NCBI GenBank assembly: GCA_027339965.1
Contig: DAHWNL010000067.1
Span: forward strand, 1 to 24,651
Direction: 5' to 3'
Length of the DNA stretch: 24,651 nucleotides
From: Granulicella sp.
GTDB lineage: Bacteria; Acidobacteriota; Terriglobia; Terriglobales; Acidobacteriaceae
In this document: positions 11,271 to 23,818 of the stretch, one piece after another
How the letters are laid out: each line of letters starts with the position of its first letter
Position numbering within the stretch: position 1 is the first letter of the stretch
Made by a program: the position numbers and the translations under genes
Notes under the pieces: model-generated
What the model was told of the DNA's origin: nothing
Database searches by the model: none
What the model saw: the letters and a program-made list of their open reading frames with translations, nothing else

Positions 11271-11363
11271 GTTGGCTCACTGCAGCGGATGGGAAGCTCT
11301 GTTATCTTGCTGTGCGCTGGGCTTTGGCATCAGATCCGGCGCTGAAGTTTGAAGGAGTTCGGG

Positions 11364-13331
11364 ATGACGGCTGCGGGGATGCTTGTCGGGATCGTTGGGC
11401 TAAGACTGAATCTTCGGTTAGCCGAGCCGGCGAGCTTGGGGCTGGGAGCGAGAGTTCTGCTGGCGGCTTTGATGCTGGGGTCCGCAGGGTTGTTCGCCTG
11501 GCGCGGTGCGCCCATCGCGCGCGCCATCTGGGGATCAAAGAAGGATACGGACCTTCGTCTGCGCCCGTTGGGCCGCCGCGGGTGGAGGTTCTTCTGGGAA
11601 GTCCTGTGCCAGGCCAAGGTGATTCGGCAACGGAGGCTCCCCGGGCTGGCGCATGCGTTGGTGTACTGGGGTTTCCTGGCCTTTGCGCTGGTGACCATCA
11701 ACGATCTGGCGGAGGGATTTGGCTGCGATCTTCTGGCCCGCGCAGGAGCGTTTGGAGCGTTTTATGTAGCGTTTGCCGGGGCGTGGGCGCTGTTGGTCGC
11801 TTTCGCCATTGCGGGACTCTTTGCGCGCCGGTTTCTGGCGCGGCCCAAGTGGCTGGGGGAGGTCTCTCTCGAATCCGGTGTCATTGCTTTGTTGATCTTT
11901 GCGCTGATGGCGACCTATCTGGCCATGCTGGTGGTGCCGCAGCGCAGCCCTGCTGCCGCCTGTCTCTGGTGGGCACACACGCTGGTGCTGCTGGCATTTT
12001 TGCCCATCATTCCTGGAACCAAACACCTGCATCTGTTGCTGAGTCCGCTGACGGTTTTCCTGAAGCGGCCGGAGTTTTCGCAGCTCTCCAAGCTGGAGGG
12101 CGATGAGGAGTTCGGACTGGTGACAGGCAAGGATCTTACCCGGATCATCGCGCTGCAGGCCTACAGTTGCGTCGAGTGTGGACGCTGTACGGAGCACTGC
12201 CCCGCGGCGGCAACGGGCAAGGTGCTGAACCCCAAGGAGGTGGTGCTGGGGGTAAAGGCCTATTTGAACAGCTATGGACCGGGTAGTGACGCTCCGCTTC
12301 TCCAGGACGAGCCGGAAGGCCGGCAGAAGGCGCTCTCCATGCCGGCGGCTTTTGCTTGCACCACCTGCGGAAGCTGCGAGTACCAGTGTCCGGTGGGGGT
12401 GCAGCACCTGCCGGTGCTGATCGGTCTGCGGCGAGGCGCGGTGAACACCGGCGCATGGGAGGACCGCTATGGCACCAAACTCTTTCTGAGCCTGGAGCGG
12501 CAAGGGAACTCGCTGGGCATGGGCGCGGCGGAGCGCGACAAGTTCATTGCCAAGCAGAGGTTTCCGCTCTTCGACGGCAGTCAGGAGTACTGCCTTTGGT
12601 TGGGTTGCATGGGCAGTTACGACCCCAAGGGGCGGGAGATTGTCGCTGACTTTGCCCGCGTCATGCAAGCCCTGGGAACCAGTTTCGGAGTGCTGAAGAA
12701 GGAGAGTTGTGCGGGCGATCCGGCGCGGCGGCTGGGCAATGATCTGCTCTTCGGAGAGCTTGCGGAGCAGGGTTTGAAGAGCTTTGCCCAGGCTGGGGTG
12801 AAGAAGATCGTCACCGTCTGTCCGCACTGTTTGCGGACCATCGCCAGCGACTGGCGGGAGTATGGCGTTGCGCCGGAGATCGAACACCACTCCGAGTTCA
12901 TGGCGCGGCACGCGGCTCTGCTGGAGCGGTTGATGGTCGGTGAGCAGGGAGGGAGCGTCGTCTATCACGACCCTTGCTATCTGGGTCGCTACCGCGAGGT
13001 CTATGAACCGCCGCGGGCGGTGGTGGCCATGGCCGGGGAGCTGGTCGAGGCAGAGAGGCATCGAGAGCGCTCGTTCTGCTGCGGAGCCGGCGGCGGGCTG
13101 GCGTTTCTGGGCGAAGAGGCTGGAGACCGAGTGAGCCATGGGCGAACCAGGGAGTTGATGGAGACCGGAGCGAAGACGATTGGAACCGCCTGTCCGTTCT
13201 GCAACTCGATGTTCCGCGATGCGTTGGGTGAGGTGGGCGGAGCGGCGCCGCCGCAACTGCTGGATATCGCACAACTGGTAGCGCGGCGTTTGCCGGCGCA
13301 GGCGCTGGATTCCGGCGAACTGAAGGGCTGA
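11364..13331 (+). CDS. fadF: Membrane-bound Fe-S oxidoreductase, FadF/heterodisulfide-reductase-like (probable ETF:quinone oxidoreductase)
   Basis: N-terminal TM region with His residues (AHAL, AHTL, KHLH), two CxxCxxCxxxCP motifs (CVECGRCTEHCP, CTTCGSCEYQCP), and CCG domains (LGC, ESCAGD, CPHC, HDPC, FCCGAGGG, CPFC). AAGGAG precedes ATG 11364. Confidence 0.88.
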   Translation: MTAAGMLVGIVGLRLNLRLAEPASLGLGARVLLAALMLGSAGLFAWRGAPIARAIWGSKKDTDLRLRPLGRRGWRFFWEVLCQAKVIRQRRLPGLAHALVYWGFLAFALVTINDLAEGFGCDLLARAGAFGAFYVAFAGAWALLVAFAIAGLFARRFLARPKWLGEVSLESGVIALLIFALMATYLAMLVVPQRSPAAACLWWAHTLVLLAFLPIIPGTKHLHLLLSPLTVFLKRPEFSQLSKLEGDEEFGLVTGKDLTRIIALQAYSCVECGRCTEHCPAAATGKVLNPKEVVLGVKAYLNSYGPGSDAPLLQDEPEGRQKALSMPAAFACTTCGSCEYQCPVGVQHLPVLIGLRRGAVNTGAWEDRYGTKLFLSLERQGNSLGMGAAERDKFIAKQRFPLFDGSQEYCLWLGCMGSYDPKGREIVADFARVMQALGTSFGVLKKESCAGDPARRLGNDLLFGELAEQGLKSFAQAGVKKIVTVCPHCLRTIASDWREYGVAPEIEHHSEFMARHAALLERLMVGEQGGSVVYHDPCYLGRYREVYEPPRAVVAMAGELVEAERHRERSFCCGAGGGLAFLGEEAGDRVSHGRTRELMETGAKTIGTACPFCNSMFRDALGEVGGAAPPQLLDIAQLVARRLPAQALDSGELKG

Positions 13332-13421
13332 AGGCGGCTCGGGTGGAGCAGAGGCACAAAACGGGTTCGGTACCGGTTAGGGTAGGCTGGCCGTGGCTGT
13401 TTTTTTAGAGCGGAGTTGGGG

Positions 13422-14231
13422 ATGAAGATTGTTGTAGCCGTAAAGCAGGTTCCGGAACGAGAGGCGGTGCTGCGCGTGACCCCCGATGGCCGCAGCATTG
13501 ACGAGAGTGATGTGGCATGGACGATGAATGAGCCGGATGCCTATGCCCTGGAAGAGGCGCTGCAGTTGAAGCAGCGCGCGGCAGAGGCAGGTCTGGGGGA
13601 GGCTGAGGTGGTGGTGCTGAGTGCCGGGCCGGAGCGGGTCCAGAGCACATTGCGGGAGGCTTTGGCCAAGGGCGCGGACCGTGCCCTGCATGTGGTGACG
13701 CCGGAGAGCGGGGAAGGTTCGCTGGCAGAGCGCGGCTCATTGGACGTGGCTCGGCTGCTGGCGGAGGCGGTGAAGGGCGAGCAGCCGGAGCTGGTGCTGA
13801 CAGGGTTACAGTCGGATGATCTCGGAGCCGGACAGACGGGTGTGGTGATGGCCGAGCTGCTGGGGCTTCCGCACGCCACGCTGGTGTTGCAGGTGGAGTT
13901 TGCAGGCCAGGGAGGGGTTGGCCGCCGGATCAAGGTTCGGCGCGAGCTGGAGGATGGATGGACCCAGTTCGTCGAGGTGCCGCTGCCGGCGTTGCTGACC
14001 ATCCAGTCCGGCGGCAATCGGCTGCGCTATGCGACCTTGATGGGCATCAAGCGGGCCCGGCAGAAGGAGATGCGTGAGTTATCCGCGGCGACCCCGACGC
14101 AGCGCGTCGATGAGGTAGTGAAGGTTTCTCCGCCGTTGCGCTTGAAGCAGACGGAGATGCTGACGGGAGCGGCGGAGGAGATTGCGGCCAAGCTGGTGGA
14201 GCGGTTGCGGTTTGAGGTGAAGGTGCTATGA
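13422..14231 (+). CDS. etfB: Electron transfer flavoprotein beta subunit
   Basis: MKIVVAVKQVP, MNEPDAYALEEALQLK, EALAKGADRA, LTGLQSDD...GQTG, RRELEDG, RYATLMGIKRA. Confidence 0.96.
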   Translation: MKIVVAVKQVPEREAVLRVTPDGRSIDESDVAWTMNEPDAYALEEALQLKQRAAEAGLGEAEVVVLSAGPERVQSTLREALAKGADRALHVVTPESGEGSLAERGSLDVARLLAEAVKGEQPELVLTGLQSDDLGAGQTGVVMAELLGLPHATLVLQVEFAGQGGVGRRIKVRRELEDGWTQFVEVPLPALLTIQSGGNRLRYATLMGIKRARQKEMRELSAATPTQRVDEVVKVSPPLRLKQTEMLTGAAEEIAAKLVERLRFEVKVL

Positions 14232-15244
14232 GCGCAGGCGTGTTGGTGGTGATGGAGACCAAAGACGTTCGGGAGCGCCGCGCCGAAGGTGGCGCTGCTT
14301 GGCACCGCGTCAGTCTGGAAGCGCTCACCGCTGGACAGATGCTGGCCGGAGAATTGGGTGTCGCTTGCTCGGCTGGGGTGCTGGGTGCGAGCGCAGCGAT
14401 CGCCCCGCTGGCTGCGGAGCTGTCCGCGCGGAGGCTGGAGACGGTCTGGGCCGTGGGCGATGATCTGCTGGCCGTGTATACCGCCGATGGCTGGACGATC
14501 GCGCTGGAGCAGCTGATTGCGCAAGTTGAACCGAAGTTCGTGGTGTTTCCGCACACCTACCAGGTGAGAGACTATGCGCCAGCGCTGGCTACTCGCCTGG
14601 GTGAAGTGCTGATCGGCGATGTGGCCGCGGTTCAGATGGCCGGCGAGCCGCGTGAACCGCTGTTCGTGCGGCAGTGGATGCAGGGCAAGCTGAATGCGGT
14701 CTACCGGCATCGAAAGCCGGGCGGAGTCTGTCTGCTATCGGTGCAGGCGGGAAGCTTCCGGGCCGATGCCGCGAAAGCGGGCCAGAGTCAGGTGCTGGAG
14801 TTTGCTCCCAAGCTGGCCGCGGAGAAGATCCGGACGGCGCCAAGTGAGCCGATTCGCGAGGCTGCGCGGACAGTGGACCTCTCTGTGGCGGAGGTGATTG
14901 TCGGGGTGGGACGAGGGATCGGCGAGCAGGAGAATCTTAAGCTGGTGGAGAATCTTGCCCAGGCGCTGGGAGCCGAACTCGCAGCCTCCCGGCCGATCTG
15001 CGATGCGGGCTGGTTGCCGTTGGAGCGTCAGGTTGGAAGCTCGGGGCAGACGGTCGCGCCCAAGCTGTATCTGGCCGTGGGCATCTCCGGCGCGATTCAA
15101 CACCTGGTGGGGATGAAGGGCGCTAAGACCGTGATTGCGATCAACAAGGACGCCGAAGCGCCGATCTTTGAGGTTGCGGATATTGGAGTGGTGGGAGACC
15201 TTTTCGAGGTGGTGCCTGCGCTGACCCGGGCCATACGCGGATAG
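14228..15244 (+). CDS. etfA: Electron transfer flavoprotein alpha subunit
   Basis: AEVIVGVGRG, AASRPICDAGW, QVGSSGQTVAPKLYLAVGISGAIQHLVGM, AINKDAEAPIFEVAD; ATGA overlap with etfB. Confidence 0.96.
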   Translation: MSAGVLVVMETKDVRERRAEGGAAWHRVSLEALTAGQMLAGELGVACSAGVLGASAAIAPLAAELSARRLETVWAVGDDLLAVYTADGWTIALEQLIAQVEPKFVVFPHTYQVRDYAPALATRLGEVLIGDVAAVQMAGEPREPLFVRQWMQGKLNAVYRHRKPGGVCLLSVQAGSFRADAAKAGQSQVLEFAPKLAAEKIRTAPSEPIREAARTVDLSVAEVIVGVGRGIGEQENLKLVENLAQALGAELAASRPICDAGWLPLERQVGSSGQTVAPKLYLAVGISGAIQHLVGMKGAKTVIAINKDAEAPIFEVADIGVVGDLFEVVPALTRAIRG

Positions 15245-15348
15245 GAGCGGCACATCTCGGCATGGGCCGCGGGGAGCGAAGTGGGGCGGGGCAAGAGGAA
15301 CTTCGCGAGACTCAAAGGGCTCGACTTGCGTCATAATAAAAAGAAGAG

Positions 15349-15391
15349 AGGCCAAGCCTGATCTTCGGTAAGACAGGCCAAGCCTGATCTT
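15349..15391 (+). repeat. Exact 17-bp direct repeat AGGCCAAGCCTGATCTT, two copies (15349-15365 and 15375-15391)
   Basis: Seen directly; lies just downstream of a CATAAT -10-like hexamer at 15332-15337. Confidence 0.9.
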
Positions 15392-15435
15392 GGTCCTGCT
15401 CCCAGCCTTTGAACAGATCAGTCCAACGCGGATGG

Positions 15436-15777
15436 ATGGATCCTACGCATTCCTTGTGCATGCGGGCGATCACTTTTGCGTGTCTGCTTCTCGTGACTGC
15501 GGCCAGTTCGCTGCAAGCCGTCCATATTCATGGGCAGTGGCTTCCGCAGCGGGCGGCGCACCTGACCACTCCTCCGGATGGTTCGCAGGTGCCGGGCGGC
15601 GAGGAGAATTGTCCCCTCTGCATGGCGATGCACACGGCCATGCCTGCGGCGGCGCGCATCGAGTTGCCGCACCTGGAATTGGTGGAGTGCAAAGAGATGC
15701 AGGCAAAGAATCATTTGCTTGAGACGCTATGGCACTATGCCACGTACAGCAAGCCTCCACCTGAGCAGACCCTCTGA
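15436..15777 (+). CDS. DUF2946/CruR-like small exported protein, putative regulatory upstream ORF
   Basis: Hydrophobic signal-like segment (AITFACLLLVTAASSLQA), HIH, CPLCMAMH and C-terminal YSKPPP, directly upstream of a TonB-dependent receptor. Start uncertain (15409, 15436 or 15460). Confidence 0.72.
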   Translation: MDPTHSLCMRAITFACLLLVTAASSLQAVHIHGQWLPQRAAHLTTPPDGSQVPGGEENCPLCMAMHTAMPAAARIELPHLELVECKEMQAKNHLLETLWHYATYSKPPPEQTL

Positions 15778-16327
15778 CCCTCTCCAGCCAAGAGAGCCGC
15801 GTTTCAGGTAGCACGAGAGCGAACAACGTTCGTTCCGTTCTTCATTCTTCCCGGAATTGGACAAATCATTCGGTTGGCGTAAGCCGAAGCCTTTGCGGGC
15901 ATAAGCTTCAGGATTTTGTCCGGCAGACGTTCTGATTGTCCATCTGAACAGCCCATCCGAGGCGATCTTCTCTTTCTACCCTGTAACGCGGGGTAAGACG
16001 AGCATGGGACTGGGGTCAGAGACTACCTTCCCCAAGGGGATATCGAGACGCAAACAATGGCGTTTCCTGGTGGGAAGATCTGCTCCGTAACTGCAAGGCT
16101 TCGCAGGACGCCGGGGAAAAAGGGATAGGAAGTCCTGTCTGGAGTTGCCGCGGAGCAACCACCGCGTCTGGCGCTATTTCGATTCAGCAGCCGAATGCTC
16201 TGGATTCATCTCTGCCGGTTGCTTTTTCAGCCAGATCATTTGAGGACGCATCGGCATGCTGTGGTGGCCGTGGGGTGAGAGCCCTGGTGCTGCCCGGTGC
16301 GGGTTTTGATCGACAGGAGGGTTTTCC
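15778..16327 (+). promoter_or_regulatory. Long, apparently multi-stem leader/intergenic RNA upstream of the TonB receptor
   Basis: Several nested complementary pairs seen by eye (see findings), no credible CDS, AGGAGG RBS at 16315-16320. Confidence 0.45.
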
Positions 16328-19237
16328 ATGATCCAAAGATTTTTCCGGCGCAAGTCTTCGAGCCTTTGGGGCGGCGTGGTCGTGAGCGCGGTGATCCTGA
16401 TGGCAAGGCCGAGAGCCGCTGCCGGCCAAGGCTTGTCAGGAACGCTGGATGGAACGGTGACGGATGCTACCGGGGCGATGATCCCTGGCGGCTCAGTGAC
16501 GATCAGCAACCCGGCAAGCGGTTATATCCGCAAGAGTACGGTCGATTCATCCGGTCACTTCCAGTTTGCCAACCTGCCTTTCAGTCCCTACGCCATTACG
16601 GTAAAGAGCCAGGGATTTCAGGACTTCAATGAAGCAATGCAAATCGATTCGCCGGTGCCGATGAAGCTGCGGATCGTGATGCAGGTAGCCGGCTCCGCGA
16701 CCACGGTGACGGTGACGGCCCCCACCGGCATGACGCAAAACTCTTCCACCTTTCACACCGACATCGATCGCGGGTCGTTCAACAAGTTACCACTGGAAAG
16801 TCAATCCTCGTCCCTGGTTTCGCTGGTGACGTTGGCGTCTCCCGGCGTAGCGGCGGATTCGAACGGACTCTTCCATGGTTTGGGAGATCATGCATCGAAC
16901 TCGTTTTCGATCGATGGTCAGCCGATCACCGACCAGCAGAGCAAGGTGTTCTCCAATGAGCTGCCATCGAATGCCGTGCAGTCGATCGAGGTGATCTCTG
17001 GAGCGCCGCCGGCCGAGTATGGCGACAAGACCAGTCTGATCATTGAGGTGACAACGCGCTCCGGCCTGGGAGTCACCACGCCAACGGGTTCAACCTCGTC
17101 CTCGTATGGAAGCTTTGGATCCACCACCGGTTCCTTCGACCTCAGTTACGGAGGCACGAAGTGGGGAAACTTCTTTGAAAGCGACGGTCTTGATACCGGC
17201 CGCTTTCTGGATGCTCCGGAGTTTGAGGTGATCCACGACAAGGGCAATGAGTTCAACCTGTTTGACCGTGTGGATCGGCAGTTTAAGCAGGCCGGCGCCT
17301 TTCACCTGAACCTGAACGTCAGCCGTTCCTGGTTCCAGACACCCAACGCTCTGAACAATTTGAACATCCAAAACGTAGCCAGCGATGAATCGTCCTCGGG
17401 CGGAGGGGCGAGCGCGAACCCAACTCTGGTGGATGTGGGCAATACCGATCAGCGATCGAAGATTTTGACCTACGATGTGGCGCCCTCGTATGACTGGACG
17501 CTCAACCAGTATGCCGTGCTGACCTTTGGGGCCTATGTGCGCCGTGACGACTACAACTATTATCCCAGCAAGAATCCGCTGGCGGACTACAGCACGGTGA
17601 CCCTGCAGAATCAGACGATCGGCCAGGCGCGCAGCCTGACCAACGCTGGAATTCGAAGTGATATCGCGTATGTGCGGGGCATCCACAACATCAAGGTGGG
17701 TGGCGAGTACGAGCAGACCTTTCTGCGCGAGAACGATGTTCTAGCTGTGGTGAACAACACCTTCAACTCCCCTTGCGTAGATCAGTACGGCAACTCGCTG
17801 CCGGGCTATTCCAGCCCCAGCGAGTGTCCGGCGGGGACCTTGCCCAACTCAAACTATCTCTCCGTTCTGGCGCCCTATGATCTTACGCGTGGAGGCGGCT
17901 ACTACACGTTCATCGGGCACACCGATGTGAAGGAGGCGGCGCTTTATGCGCAGGACCAGATCACCAAAGGCCCGTGGCTGTGGAACGTGGGCATTCGCGG
18001 CGATCTCTACAATGGCCTTGCGGTGGCGCGCCAGGCTGAGCCGCGAGTGGGCGTCGCCTACGACGTCAAGAAAACCGGGACCATTCTGCGCCTCTCGTAT
18101 GCTCGAACCCTGGAGACACCCTTCAATGAAAATCTGGTGCTCTCCAGCCTGGGCTGTAGCAGCGCCGTTCTGGCGCCGCTGTTGCAGTGCCAGCCTGGCG
18201 TCGGCACCATCATGCAGCCGGGCTTCCGCAACGAGTTCCATGCCGGCTTCCAGCAGCAGGCCAGCCGGTTCCTGGTGATCTCCGGCGAGTACATCTGGAA
18301 GTACACGCACAACGCCTTTGACTTCAGCGTGCTGGGCAATACGCCCATCACCTTCCCCATCGACTGGCACAATGCGAAGGTTCCGGGATTCATGTTTCAT
18401 GTGACCATGCCGCAGTACCACGGCTTCTCGGCGTTCATGGTGATGGAATCCGTGGCTGCAAGGTTCTTTCCGCCGCAGGTAGCCGGCGCGGGAGCTACGG
18501 GAGGTGTGGCTCCGGGCAAGGTGTACTATCCCTTCCTGATCGACCACGATGAAAAACTCAACCAGACGACCCATTTGCAGTACCAGATTCCGGGGCGGTT
18601 CGAGCCGTGGTTTGGCTTCAACTGGCGGTATGACAGCGGTCTGGTGGCGGGCTCGACGCCCTGTTATAACCCCTTGTCCAACGATCCCAACAGTGCCTGT
18701 CCCAACAGTTCCTATGCTCCGGACAGTCCCATTGGAACCAATGGCGTGCCGACCACGCCGGCGACGTTGAACGGCGTGCCCGCCGTGGTGCTGGTGGACA
18801 ACAATCTCCCCGCGACCGCCAACCCGGTGAATGGGGGATTAGCCTATCTGCCCTTGGACGCTGACGAAGAGTTTGAGGCCGGCCTGAGTTGTGATGGCGT
18901 GAAAGCGACGGGATTCAACCTGATTGGAACGCCGATTCCGAATACGCCTTACTATGAGTGCGAGGCCAGCCAGCTCAGATCTTCGCAGCTTCAGGTTCCC
19001 GCTCCGTTCAGGGGAGATAACGACAAACTCCCGCCGCGGGTGGCGCAACGCAGTCTGTTTGATTTCTCCATCGGACAGGACAACCTGTTTGATGGCAAGC
19101 GCTTCCGCTGGAGCGCGATGCTGACGGTGATCAACTTGACCGACAAGCGTGCTCTGTACAACTTTCTCTCCACCTTCAGCGGAACGCACTTTGTGACGCC
19201 TCGCGACATTACGGCGCAACTGGCCTTCCATTTTTAG
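16328..19237 (+). CDS. TonB-dependent receptor with N-terminal carboxypeptidase-regulatory-like domain
   Basis: Signal peptide, GTLDGTVTDATGAMIPG, plug-like IDGQPITD...AVQSIEVISGAPPAEYGDKTS, beta-strand pattern, NLTDK and terminal aromatic (QLAFHF). Confidence 0.93.
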   Translation: MIQRFFRRKSSSLWGGVVVSAVILMARPRAAAGQGLSGTLDGTVTDATGAMIPGGSVTISNPASGYIRKSTVDSSGHFQFANLPFSPYAITVKSQGFQDFNEAMQIDSPVPMKLRIVMQVAGSATTVTVTAPTGMTQNSSTFHTDIDRGSFNKLPLESQSSSLVSLVTLASPGVAADSNGLFHGLGDHASNSFSIDGQPITDQQSKVFSNELPSNAVQSIEVISGAPPAEYGDKTSLIIEVTTRSGLGVTTPTGSTSSSYGSFGSTTGSFDLSYGGTKWGNFFESDGLDTGRFLDAPEFEVIHDKGNEFNLFDRVDRQFKQAGAFHLNLNVSRSWFQTPNALNNLNIQNVASDESSSGGGASANPTLVDVGNTDQRSKILTYDVAPSYDWTLNQYAVLTFGAYVRRDDYNYYPSKNPLADYSTVTLQNQTIGQARSLTNAGIRSDIAYVRGIHNIKVGGEYEQTFLRENDVLAVVNNTFNSPCVDQYGNSLPGYSSPSECPAGTLPNSNYLSVLAPYDLTRGGGYYTFIGHTDVKEAALYAQDQITKGPWLWNVGIRGDLYNGLAVARQAEPRVGVAYDVKKTGTILRLSYARTLETPFNENLVLSSLGCSSAVLAPLLQCQPGVGTIMQPGFRNEFHAGFQQQASRFLVISGEYIWKYTHNAFDFSVLGNTPITFPIDWHNAKVPGFMFHVTMPQYHGFSAFMVMESVAARFFPPQVAGAGATGGVAPGKVYYPFLIDHDEKLNQTTHLQYQIPGRFEPWFGFNWRYDSGLVAGSTPCYNPLSNDPNSACPNSSYAPDSPIGTNGVPTTPATLNGVPAVVLVDNNLPATANPVNGGLAYLPLDADEEFEAGLSCDGVKATGFNLIGTPIPNTPYYECEASQLRSSQLQVPAPFRGDNDKLPPRVAQRSLFDFSIGQDNLFDGKRFRWSAMLTVINLTDKRALYNFLSTFSGTHFVTPRDITAQLAFHF

Positions 19238-19262: not shown

Positions 19263-19296
19263 ACGCCCGCTCTTGTCCAGAGCGGGCGTTCGTTTT
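19263..19296 (+). terminator. Intrinsic terminator after the TonB receptor
   Basis: ACGCCCGCTCT-tgtcc-AGAGCGGGCGT followed by TCGTTTT. Confidence 0.75.
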
Positions 19297-19351
19297 GCTG
19301 TTCGCGCGGAGATTCCCAGTTCTGGAGCCAACTCCCGTAGCATGGAGAGAG

Positions 19352-22375: not shown

Positions 22376-23818
22376 ATGAATCGCATGACCAAGCAGGCAA
22401 GTTTCTCGGCCTTTACTCAACGTAGGCTTCTGGCCGTTGTCGCCCTTGCAGTGGCTTCGTCTTCGCTGATCGCGTGTGGAGGCACAAGCCACAGCGCGGC
22501 GAGCGGTTCGGGCTCCGGATCCGGCAGTTCGTCAAGAAGCAGCGGCGGGGCTGGGTCGAGCAGCGGAACCGGGTCGAGCGGAGAAGCTCCCAGCTTCACC
22601 TTCAGCAAGATCTCCGGCGGAACCTCGGGACTCTCGAACCCTCTGGATGTCGCGGTGGATGGGTCCGGCAATGTTTGGGTGACGGATTACTCCGGCGGCT
22701 ACGGTCAGGCGGGGGGAGGCAGCGTGACCGAGCTGACCAAGGCAAGCGACTTTTCGGCCGGCAGCGCGATCAACATCTCCGGCGTCAGCACGGGTCTGAA
22801 CGGTTCCAAATTTCTGGCCATCGATCCGTCCGGGAACGTCTGGATTACGAGCAGCTTTGGATCCAACTCCGTTACTGAACTGACCAAGGCGTCTGGATAC
22901 GCTGCTTCCTCTGCCGTGGTCATCTCTGGAGGAAATACGAATTTCAATGGACCTTGCGGAATCCTCGCTGACGAATCGGGGAACATATGGGTGGCGAATA
23001 TTGTCGGCAACTCTGTAACGGAGTTGCCGGCCTCGGCAGTCCAAGCGTCCAATGCGACTGGAGTTTCCATTGCCGTGGCCGCGCGCAATATCTCCGGCGG
23101 AAGCACCGGCTTTGCCAGTCCCGCGATGGTAGCGATGGATCCATCCGGCAATCTGTGGATTACAAATGTCGCTCTGCTTTCAGATAGCGGAAGCCCAGGA
23201 GTTACACAGCTTACGAAAGCCTCAAACTATTCGGCGAGCAGCGCCGTCAATATCTCCACCGCGAGTGCGAGCGGTGGGAGCTCTGGCGGGACGCTTCCCT
23301 TTGACATTGCCTCGGATAGCGCGGGGAACATCTGGATGACTGCGGAGAGGGTCAGCCCCGCCACCAATTCGTCTGGTACGGCAACGATGAATGCAGTGGT
23401 TGTGGAATTGACGCTGGCGTCCAACTACTCCTGGGCGCAAGCCGTAAGCATCACGGGCTTTGCTTCGGAGACGGACATTCCCTTGGGCATTGCGATTGAC
23501 GGGGCCGGGAACGTCTGGTTTACCAACTTGGAGGCGGCCTTCGACACTTCAACCAGCCAGGTGCAGTCCACCTCGAGCTTCGTTACGGAGCTGACCAAAG
23601 CCAGTAATTATTCGGCTTCCAGCGCGGTGACGATTACCGCCAGCCAAGCGGGGTTCACTACGGCTGTGGGCATCGCGATTGATGGCTCTGGAAACGTTTG
23701 GATTGCCAACTCGTCGATTGGGCTGGTGAACAGCCAGGTCGCCGCATCATCCGGCGGCACTTCCAACGTCGTTGAGATACCTGGCGCGGCCTCGCCGACA
23801 AGCCCGCCGCTGCTGTAA
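22376..23818 (+). CDS. Lipoprotein with seven NHL-like repeats (probable beta-propeller)
   Basis: Lipobox LIA-C, Gly/Ser linker, seven copies of P-x-x-(I/V)A-x-D-x-SGN(V/I)W followed by VTELTKAS-like segments. Confidence 0.85.
   Translation: MNRMTKQASFSAFTQRRLLAVVALAVASSSLIACGGTSHSAASGSGSGSGSSSRSSGGAGSSSGTGSSGEAPSFTFSKISGGTSGLSNPLDVAVDGSGNVWVTDYSGGYGQAGGGSVTELTKASDFSAGSAINISGVSTGLNGSKFLAIDPSGNVWITSSFGSNSVTELTKASGYAASSAVVISGGNTNFNGPCGILADESGNIWVANIVGNSVTELPASAVQASNATGVSIAVAARNISGGSTGFASPAMVAMDPSGNLWITNVALLSDSGSPGVTQLTKASNYSASSAVNISTASASGGSSGGTLPFDIASDSAGNIWMTAERVSPATNSSGTATMNAVVVELTLASNYSWAQAVSITGFASETDIPLGIAIDGAGNVWFTNLEAAFDTSTSQVQSTSSFVTELTKASNYSASSAVTITASQAGFTTAVGIAIDGSGNVWIANSSIGLVNSQVAASSGGTSNVVEIPGAASPTSPPLL

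Follow-up and report, generated by a model that had tools for sequence, protein, structure and literature searches.

Metal sensing by a stalling leader peptide has already been published for CruR and CutF, and the principle is not new. CruR (BP2923, DUF2946/PF11162) of Bordetella pertussis, the first gene of cruR-bfrG(crtA)-bp2921, encodes a small exported leader with a C-rich end and heads a TonB-dependent transporter across a long 162-nt spacer (PMC9426467, PMC12992588). Its CxxC is the copper sensor, with no effect of Fe and a moderate effect of Zn, and lies 45 ± 1–2 residues before a RAPP motif, and the logic is independent of elongation factor P (EF-P) (PMC9426467). CutF of Rhodobacter capsulatus (PMC9973294, bioRxiv 10.1101/2025.02.05.636593) also acts in cis, with a Cys metal motif (CxxxC), a multicopper oxidase as target, an adjacent stem-loop over the Shine-Dalgarno (SD) sequence and induction by copper. 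Its motif PEPEGPPPRL has no Arg before the three prolines, EF-P relieves and copper prolongs the stall, and the signal peptide is required (bioRxiv 10.1101/2025.02.05.636593). ApdA, ApdP, ApcA and SecM are likewise small secreted leaders with a C-terminal x-x-P-P motif (PMC12992588, PMC10951233, PMC10987492), and RAPP-type leaders ahead of TonB receptors are widespread (PMC12992588). Herein, we analyzed a 24,651-nt stretch of Granulicella sp. DNA (contig DAHWNL010000067.1; "the window"), in which a small leader open reading frame (ORF) ending in Lys-Pro-Pro-Pro (KPPP) lies 550 nt ahead of a gene for a TonB-dependent receptor.

The leader resembles CruR and CutF in every feature visible in the sequence except the Arg of the motif. 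We give a probability of roughly 55% to the reading that it acts in cis as a CruR-like nascent-chain metal switch whose pause, at Lys-Pro-Pro-Pro-Glu, is weaker and EF-P-sensitive. Because its anatomy (leader, importer, long spacer, C-rich end and fixed spacing) is closest to that of CruR, metal-relieved pausing together with Rho-dependent termination is favored. The original prediction had reported a signal-like N-terminus, HIH, CPLC, KPPP near the stop and a co-oriented receptor gene followed by a terminator, all of which were found (Table 1). Its proposal of a CruR/CutF-like leader is supported by these motifs, the 43-residue spacing, its place as the first gene ahead of a TonB-dependent transporter and orthologues above the DUF2946 cut-off. 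The gene order is etfB-etfA, the leader ORF, the 550-nt gap, a 969-aa receptor ORF, a terminator-like hairpin, an EamA gene and, on the opposite strand, cysS. KPPP (15751–15762) is followed by EQTL and a stop codon ending at 15777. Judged by eye, the putative export signal consists of a basic N-terminus, hydrophobic residues 21–35 (mean Kyte-Doolittle 2.1) and an S-L-Q-A site. The start had been placed at ATG 15436, giving 113 aa, which was retained in only 4/12 aligned loci. The in-frame TTG 15409 was TTG in 11 of the 12 and GTG in the twelfth; because it is kept far more often, the leader probably starts there and has 122 aa. No SD sequence was evident ahead of the leader, which would fit a weakly translated ORF.

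The pattern HxH, CxxC, 41–46 residues and [RK]PPP near a stop occurred in 1 of the 55,128 six-frame segments of the genome, and leader homologues were present in 86/101 genomes of the genus (a count that includes the unpublished G074). Because the pattern is unique in the genome, homologues are this common and the ratio of nonsynonymous to synonymous substitution rates (dN/dS) is well below 1, the leader is not a chance ORF. A looser whole-genome search for CxxC..xxPP returned noise and was discarded. In the genome loci, etfA preceded the leader in 27/28 and a transporter gene followed it in 27/28, the contig of the 28th ending in the spacer.

When 1.84 billion representatives were searched with a profile, 215 matched, and the best 150 of these were examined for motifs. 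RPPP was found in 143, RAPP in 1 and KPPP in 0, and 6 had no intact motif; Arg thus occupied the motif in 144/144 representatives that kept it. CxxC was present in 146/150, and both Cys were invariant in 46/46 close homologues. The distance from CxxC to the motif was 43 in 121/150 and 42–45 in 140/150. HxH preceded CxxC in 140/150, and a His stood four residues past CxxC in 129/138. The HxH and the additional His had been regarded as a peculiarity of this locus that could alter the metal sensed; they are family traits and therefore cannot explain a changed metal here. HxH follows a small-x-small site in 96/150 (small-x-small ahead of x-HxH), so that the mature N-terminus would be x-H-x-H.

Named relatives belonged to the Acidobacteriaceae, several of them to Granulicella, and homologues were found in 0 of 24 genomes of another family of the same order. 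Comparison with DUF2946 gave a divided answer: the orthologous leaders in G018 (27.0 bits) and G112 (25.2 bits) and the protein P0347 (26.4 bits) passed the PF11162 gathering cut-off of 23.7 bits, whereas the window protein itself was unmatched. Weak matches were seen for 22/46 close homologues (E up to 1; best 0.0025), and an Atlas cluster with 21% DUF2946 members (score 0.96) is a lead only. As judged from its orthologues, the leader appears to be a divergent Acidobacteriaceae DUF2946/CruR-like leader. It also fits the rule-based definition of CutF-like proteins in PMC9973294 (<150 aa, PP among the final 15 residues, a signal peptide and a gene on the same strand at most 1000 nt away), having 122 aa, PPP 5–7 residues from the end and a 550-nt gap. 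It carries CxxC at the expected distance from the motif, which reads KPPP and falls outside R-x-P-P. A second DUF2946-type leader family was seen in the genus (L108, L109, L111, L113–L117), with CCxxxxxxxC..CPYC..KRGPP/RGPP, ahead of a different TonB-type receptor; 7/8 of these paralogous leaders pass the PF11162 cut-off. With the profiles built here, no other leader of the KPPP/RPPP or the RGPP family was found in the genome of the window.

The rarity of Lys in place of Arg, suspected from the single locus, was confirmed by tabulating both residues. Lys was absent from the 150 representatives and occurred in 2 of 99 near clusters (SRPP 97, SKPP 2), and at the genome level KPPP was confined to one small clade of five species-level genomes (that of the window, L001, L002, L003 and L004). 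A pattern scan of metagenomes for further Lys members gave 0 matches, and a protein-based metagenome scan gave 22 loci, of which the 20 that could be parsed all had Arg. The Lys codon was always AAG, where close relatives have AGG. The residue after PPP was Asp or Glu in 5/5 Lys loci, compared with 5/144 and 1/97 Arg proteins. In all five Lys ORFs, PPP is intact, W-H-Y-x-x-F/Y-S still stands upstream of it and the spacing is exactly 43 residues. Simple Nei-Gojobori counts on these related sequences gave dN/dS of 0.09–0.26 in 10/10 pairs of Lys ORFs, with synonymous divergence (dS) up to 1.3, and 0.13–0.53 in 45 pairs of Arg ORFs, indicating that the Lys leader ORFs remain under purifying selection. 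An acidobacterial subclade with Lys, Asp/Glu and a long spacer was not found in the published literature searched, a scope outside which lie the supplementary tables of PMC9426467 and PMC9973294, which may list acidobacterial members; nor was any literature found that combines Acidobacteria, TonB-dependent transport, an upstream ORF and metal.

Rare codons are kept at the motif: the Arg codon was AGG in 29/58 loci (7% genome-wide) and the third Pro was CCT in 40/58 loci (13% genome-wide). This suggests a constraint on the RNA or on speed, and the CCT bias fits either an anti-SD sequence or a C/U-rich Rho site.

Published stalling data allow a pause of another kind at the Lys form. In an efp mutant, KPPP falls among the strong XPPP stallers, and a stall that lacks Arg at −1 can shift one codon to PPP/Z (PMC4176338). 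Among the EF-P-dependent pauses in Table 1 of PMC4140641, PPD or PPE accounts for 10/26 rows and PPV or PPA for none, and PPD has one of the highest pause scores in PMC13602936. Natural QAPP and HAPP variants stall (PMC10987492). Pro at the second motif position partly supports arrest, RPPP being partly arrest-competent; arrest in both ApdA and ApdP resists EF-P, and CruR arrests in vitro (PMC12992588). By analogy, Lys makes an EF-P-resistant, RAPP-type arrest unlikely here, and an EF-P-sensitive pause at KPPP-D/E is plausible.

The gap before the receptor was also as exceptional as had been supposed. The spacer was 550, 564, 552 and 539 nt long in four of the Lys loci (the L002 contig ends inside its spacer), 487 nt in the Arg-bearing relative L005 and 113–190 nt in 40 other loci, after removal of same-genome duplicates and of L014, L026 and L027, whose starts were mis-called. 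Three DNA trees recovered the long-spacer loci firmly as a clade (100/100). A protein tree made with a quick method placed L005 outside the Lys group (95 in the Shimodaira-Hasegawa-like approximate likelihood ratio test). The DNA trees of the receptor, EamA and leader had a three-way fork around L005, and neither arrangement was rejected by the approximately unbiased test (p = 0.07–0.42). The order in which the long spacer came first and Lys later, favored by the protein tree, is therefore one of the orders compatible with the DNA trees.

The gap had been further described as a long RNA platform, a reading that found weak support: strong, covarying structure was seen in the short ancestral spacer, but nothing better than shuffles in the 3′ part of the long one. 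The short spacer forms a covarying chain of hairpins with 38 pairs (92.5% paired, 10 with two-sided changes). Scored on five measures against 500 letter shuffles, this structure, derived from the same alignment that was used to score it, was matched by 0–1 of the shuffles on four measures and by 19 on the fifth, and 0/40 column shuffles were as good. For the long spacers, the first 235 nt were borderline against column shuffles (3/40) and the remaining 3′ part was no better than these (22/40). The folding stability of the whole long spacer was unremarkable (z = −0.05). A covariance model of the short spacer found no match at E <3.9 in the window or in L001–L005 with filters, and without filters it gave fragments of at most 6.6 bits. 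Two or three pyrimidine tracts were counted per long spacer.

Other elements were sought in the spacer and rejected. A riboswitch was not supported, with 0 Rfam matches at the gathering score and three chance-level hits (E 2–5). Local alignments to short-spacer copies or to itself were no better than shuffles, which speaks against a tandem or repeat origin, and the genome holds no second copy. No second ORF was common to the 5 long spacers. As for an internal promoter, the scan, restricted to sigma-70, gave no plus-strand site, and no −10-like hexamer was common to all long spacers. The spacer also contains an 18-nt imperfect inverted repeat (15876–15893/16095–16112), which could be an alternative pairing because the candidate segment opposing the ribosome binding site (RBS) is overlapped by its 3′ arm. 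In the Arg-bearing relative L065 (3280–3700), about 300 extra bases precede the hairpin module, and the sequence then passes directly into that coding for the receptor, with the customary SD and start absent, so the receptor start looks deleted.

The downstream protein carries CarboxypepD_reg and plug domains by Pfam. An alignment-based model (predicted local distance difference test score 69, predicted template modeling score 0.65) matched the TonB-dependent transporters Fiu, FecA and FhuE in Foldseek (E about 1e-22, identity <=13%). Ten His were kept in at least 22/23 full-length orthologues, and there was no conserved Met. OprC carries a Cys/Met copper motif; a motif of this type was not evident in the receptor.

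Modeled on CruR, the switch would work as follows. A single transcript would start about 65 nt before the TTG and span leader, spacer and receptor, since a putative −10 element upstream is conserved (TGCGT-CATA(A/C)T at 15327–15337, 0–3 changes across 12/12 aligned loci) and no conserved internal one was found. The sigma-70 scan missed this element because it lacks a good −35. When metal is scarce, the ribosome would dwell on the Pro codons and cover the C-rich end of the ORF, RNA polymerase would pass the spacer and the importer would be made. Metal, most likely copper, would bind CxxCxxxH with help from the N-terminal HxH; the metal-bound chain would fold or be pulled, the ribosome would leave and Rho would end transcription in the spacer. 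The excess of C over G across the motif window was +0.33 here and was seen in 90% of 41 short-spacer loci, and the genome carries rho, two efp-like genes and two genes for subunit I of heme-copper oxidase. In the Lys clade, Arg would have become Lys by one transition and the Val after the prolines Asp or Glu, which would shift the pause to PPP-D/E and shorten it. Rho would have more room in the tripled spacer, with its additional pyrimidine tracts, and importer levels would accordingly stay below those of relatives. Together, the change of Arg to Lys and the tripled RNA gap would retune the metal switch.

Several points weigh against such a switch. In ApcA, ApdA and ApdP, all 19 substitutions of the Arg, Lys included, relieved arrest (PMC12992588), the Arg side chain makes nearly all contacts of RAP with 23S rRNA (PMC10951233), and we encountered no natural K-type arrest peptide in the literature consulted. 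EF-P rescued the tested XPPP stalls whatever their strength (PMC4176338), and the CruR logic is EF-P-independent; a Lys pause may therefore be too brief for it. The Lys and Asp/Glu changes may represent one ancestral event in five related genomes and are therefore not independent observations. The C excess is partly a trivial consequence of the Pro codons. Three same-study RNA runs contained nothing but short foreign fragments and speak neither for nor against expression. The window leader has no Pfam or NCBIfam match, DUF2946 (PF11162) included, the best folds for the receptor are generic TonB receptors at <=13% identity and do not name a cargo, and the genes flanking the leader-receptor unit, etfA upstream and EamA downstream, include no copper gene. 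The locus also departs from CruR in its KPPP (RPPP in the family) instead of RAPP, its extra HxH and CxxCxxxH, its spacer of 550 instead of 162 nt and the absence of a following PepSY_TM gene. As a further difference, its transporter bears an N-terminal CarboxypepD_reg domain.

The Arg-less stall of CutF, sensitive to EF-P and dependent on a signal peptide, invites a different mode, in which EF-P would normally clear the KPPP-E pause, metal on the exported chain would prolong it, and the ribosome would refold the spacer and free the receptor RBS, so that metal would turn the receptor on or control would be translational. The Pro codons can pair with the SD, forming a stronger duplex than randomized Pro codons in 37/45 loci (for four relatives with long spacers, −14 to −16 kcal/mol), and the segment 16075–16105 can pair with the RBS in 5/5 long spacers with some covariation (top 1–6% of windows each). 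Nevertheless, we consider this mode rather improbable. Unmasking of the SD by a ribosome footprint on the prolines was not supported: in equilibrium folding models, beyond whose reach a co-transcriptional switch lies, it shifted the RBS opening energy by a mean of only 0.13 kcal/mol (17 up and 16 down of 45; −0.5 for the window). Single-sequence folds gave the anti-RBS helix, a lead only, a probability <=0.02, and its consensus did not outperform column shuffles. The importer lies 550 nt away, with its SD about 560 nt from the pause, and the unfolding of the CutF stem-loop likely needs short spacers (PMC9973294); moreover, metal switching an importer on is the less usual logic.

If the Arg is as irreplaceable as in the tested RAPP peptides (PMC12992588), Lys could instead have abolished arrest. 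The peptide would then persist as a small metal-binding protein that is exported, and the receptor would have passed to other control gained with the longer spacer (its own promoter, a protein-binding site or an RNA element). Lys occurs only with the long spacer, which also occurs with Arg in L005, a distribution compatible with a spacer change first and relaxed arrest later, and the long spacers escape the RNA model of the short ones. We hold this to be distinctly improbable, given that PPP, the residues before it and the 43-residue spacing persist in 5/5 Lys ORFs at dS up to 1.3 and that the long spacers share no −10-like hexamer, conserved ORF or Rfam family. In addition, neither CruR (PMC9426467) nor CutF (PMC9973294) was detected as a stable protein product. 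Very unlikely, in our judgment, is a leader that monitors export, periplasmic redox, or Ni, Co or Zn rather than copper, with CxxC as a disulfide or, together with His, as a site for another metal. The His-rich ligand set, the 10 conserved His and missing Met of the transporter, and His-only CutF-like clusters adjoining Ni/Co transporters (PMC9973294) point that way, but CxxC at the same spacing senses copper in CruR, and the copper importer CrtA likewise lacks conserved Cys/Met and uses His (PMC12914433).

Beyond the CruR-like switch that we prefer, the locus might record a conversion of mode among orthologues at a single locus: an arrest that depends on Arg and resists EF-P, as in CruR, would have given way to an EF-P-gated KPPP-D/E pause, as in CutF. 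A newly grown RNA segment of 380 nt, coupled to this change, would re-wire the output and possibly invert or rescale the metal response. The odds are clearly against this idea. If true, it would provide a functional K-type stall motif where mutagenesis says that Arg cannot be replaced, and the series Arg/short, Arg/long and Lys/long could serve to study how the two opposing DUF2946 mechanisms turn into one another. Should the Lys form just stall less, it would be a regular member of the family whose set point has been tuned. The Arg-less CutF motif is a precedent within the family and lowers the novelty. In either case the clade is a natural experiment, in which an Arg irreplaceable in the laboratory was swapped for Lys and has been retained under selection, together with a post-Pro change and a spacer three times as long. 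CruR and CutF are unlike in polarity and in their dependence on EF-P, and the three kinds of orthologue make the cause of this difference testable. Motif searches limited to R-x-P-P miss live members.

Table 1. Coordinates of the leader-receptor unit and its putative elements in the window
Feature	Position	Strand	Remark
Putative extended −10 promoter element TGCGT-CATAAT of the leader-receptor unit	15327..15337	+	function inferred
DUF2946/CruR-like leader ORF	15409..15777	+	122 aa from conserved TTG; 113 aa from ATG 15436
Hydrophobic signal-like stretch ending S-L-Q-A	15469..15519	+	probable signal-peptidase site just before V-H-I-H; hydropathy and inspection
HIH motif (family-wide HxH)	15523..15531	+	HxH in 140/150 family representatives
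CPLCMAMH (CxxCxxxH), putative metal site	15610..15633	+	CPLC = 15610-15621; 43 residues upstream of the stall residue
W-H-Y-A-T-Y-S-K-P-P-P-E, putative pause motif	15730..15765	+	C-rich; family form W-x-F-x-x-F-S-R-P-P-P-A/V
550-nt spacer	15778..16327	+	leader stop to receptor start; no Rfam match
Hairpin and pyrimidine tract	15817-15850	+	within spacer
Further pyrimidine tract	near 15960-15980	+	within spacer
Candidate anti-RBS segment (weak)	16075-16105	+	within spacer
Receptor SD ACAGGAGG	about 16313-16320	+	3′ end of spacer
TonB-dependent transporter, 969 aa	16328..19237	+	N-terminal CarboxypepD_reg domain, plug, beta-barrel
Intrinsic-terminator-like 11-bp hairpin and T-run	19263..19297 (hairpin and T-run 19263-19289)	+	follows receptor gene

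Right after the −10 element, the putative 5′ untranslated region contains a 22-nt direct repeat (15344–15391; 95% alike, 26-nt spacing), which was also present in L001 and L002 and as a single copy in other loci; it may be a recent duplication or a protein-binding site. The two efp-like genes lie at G000:C28:91780-92325 and C70:9988-10542, and two copies were also found in 9/10 relatives checked. Duplication of EF-P was rejected as a correlate of Lys, since two copies occurred in 5/5 long-spacer genomes but also in 4/5 Arg genomes. Upstream of the leader, 11349–15244 encodes an Fe-S/CCG-domain membrane oxidoreductase followed by etfB and etfA, and farther downstream 22376–23818 encodes an NHL-repeat beta-propeller protein of 480 aa that is Ser/Gly-rich and has a lipoprotein-like N-terminus.

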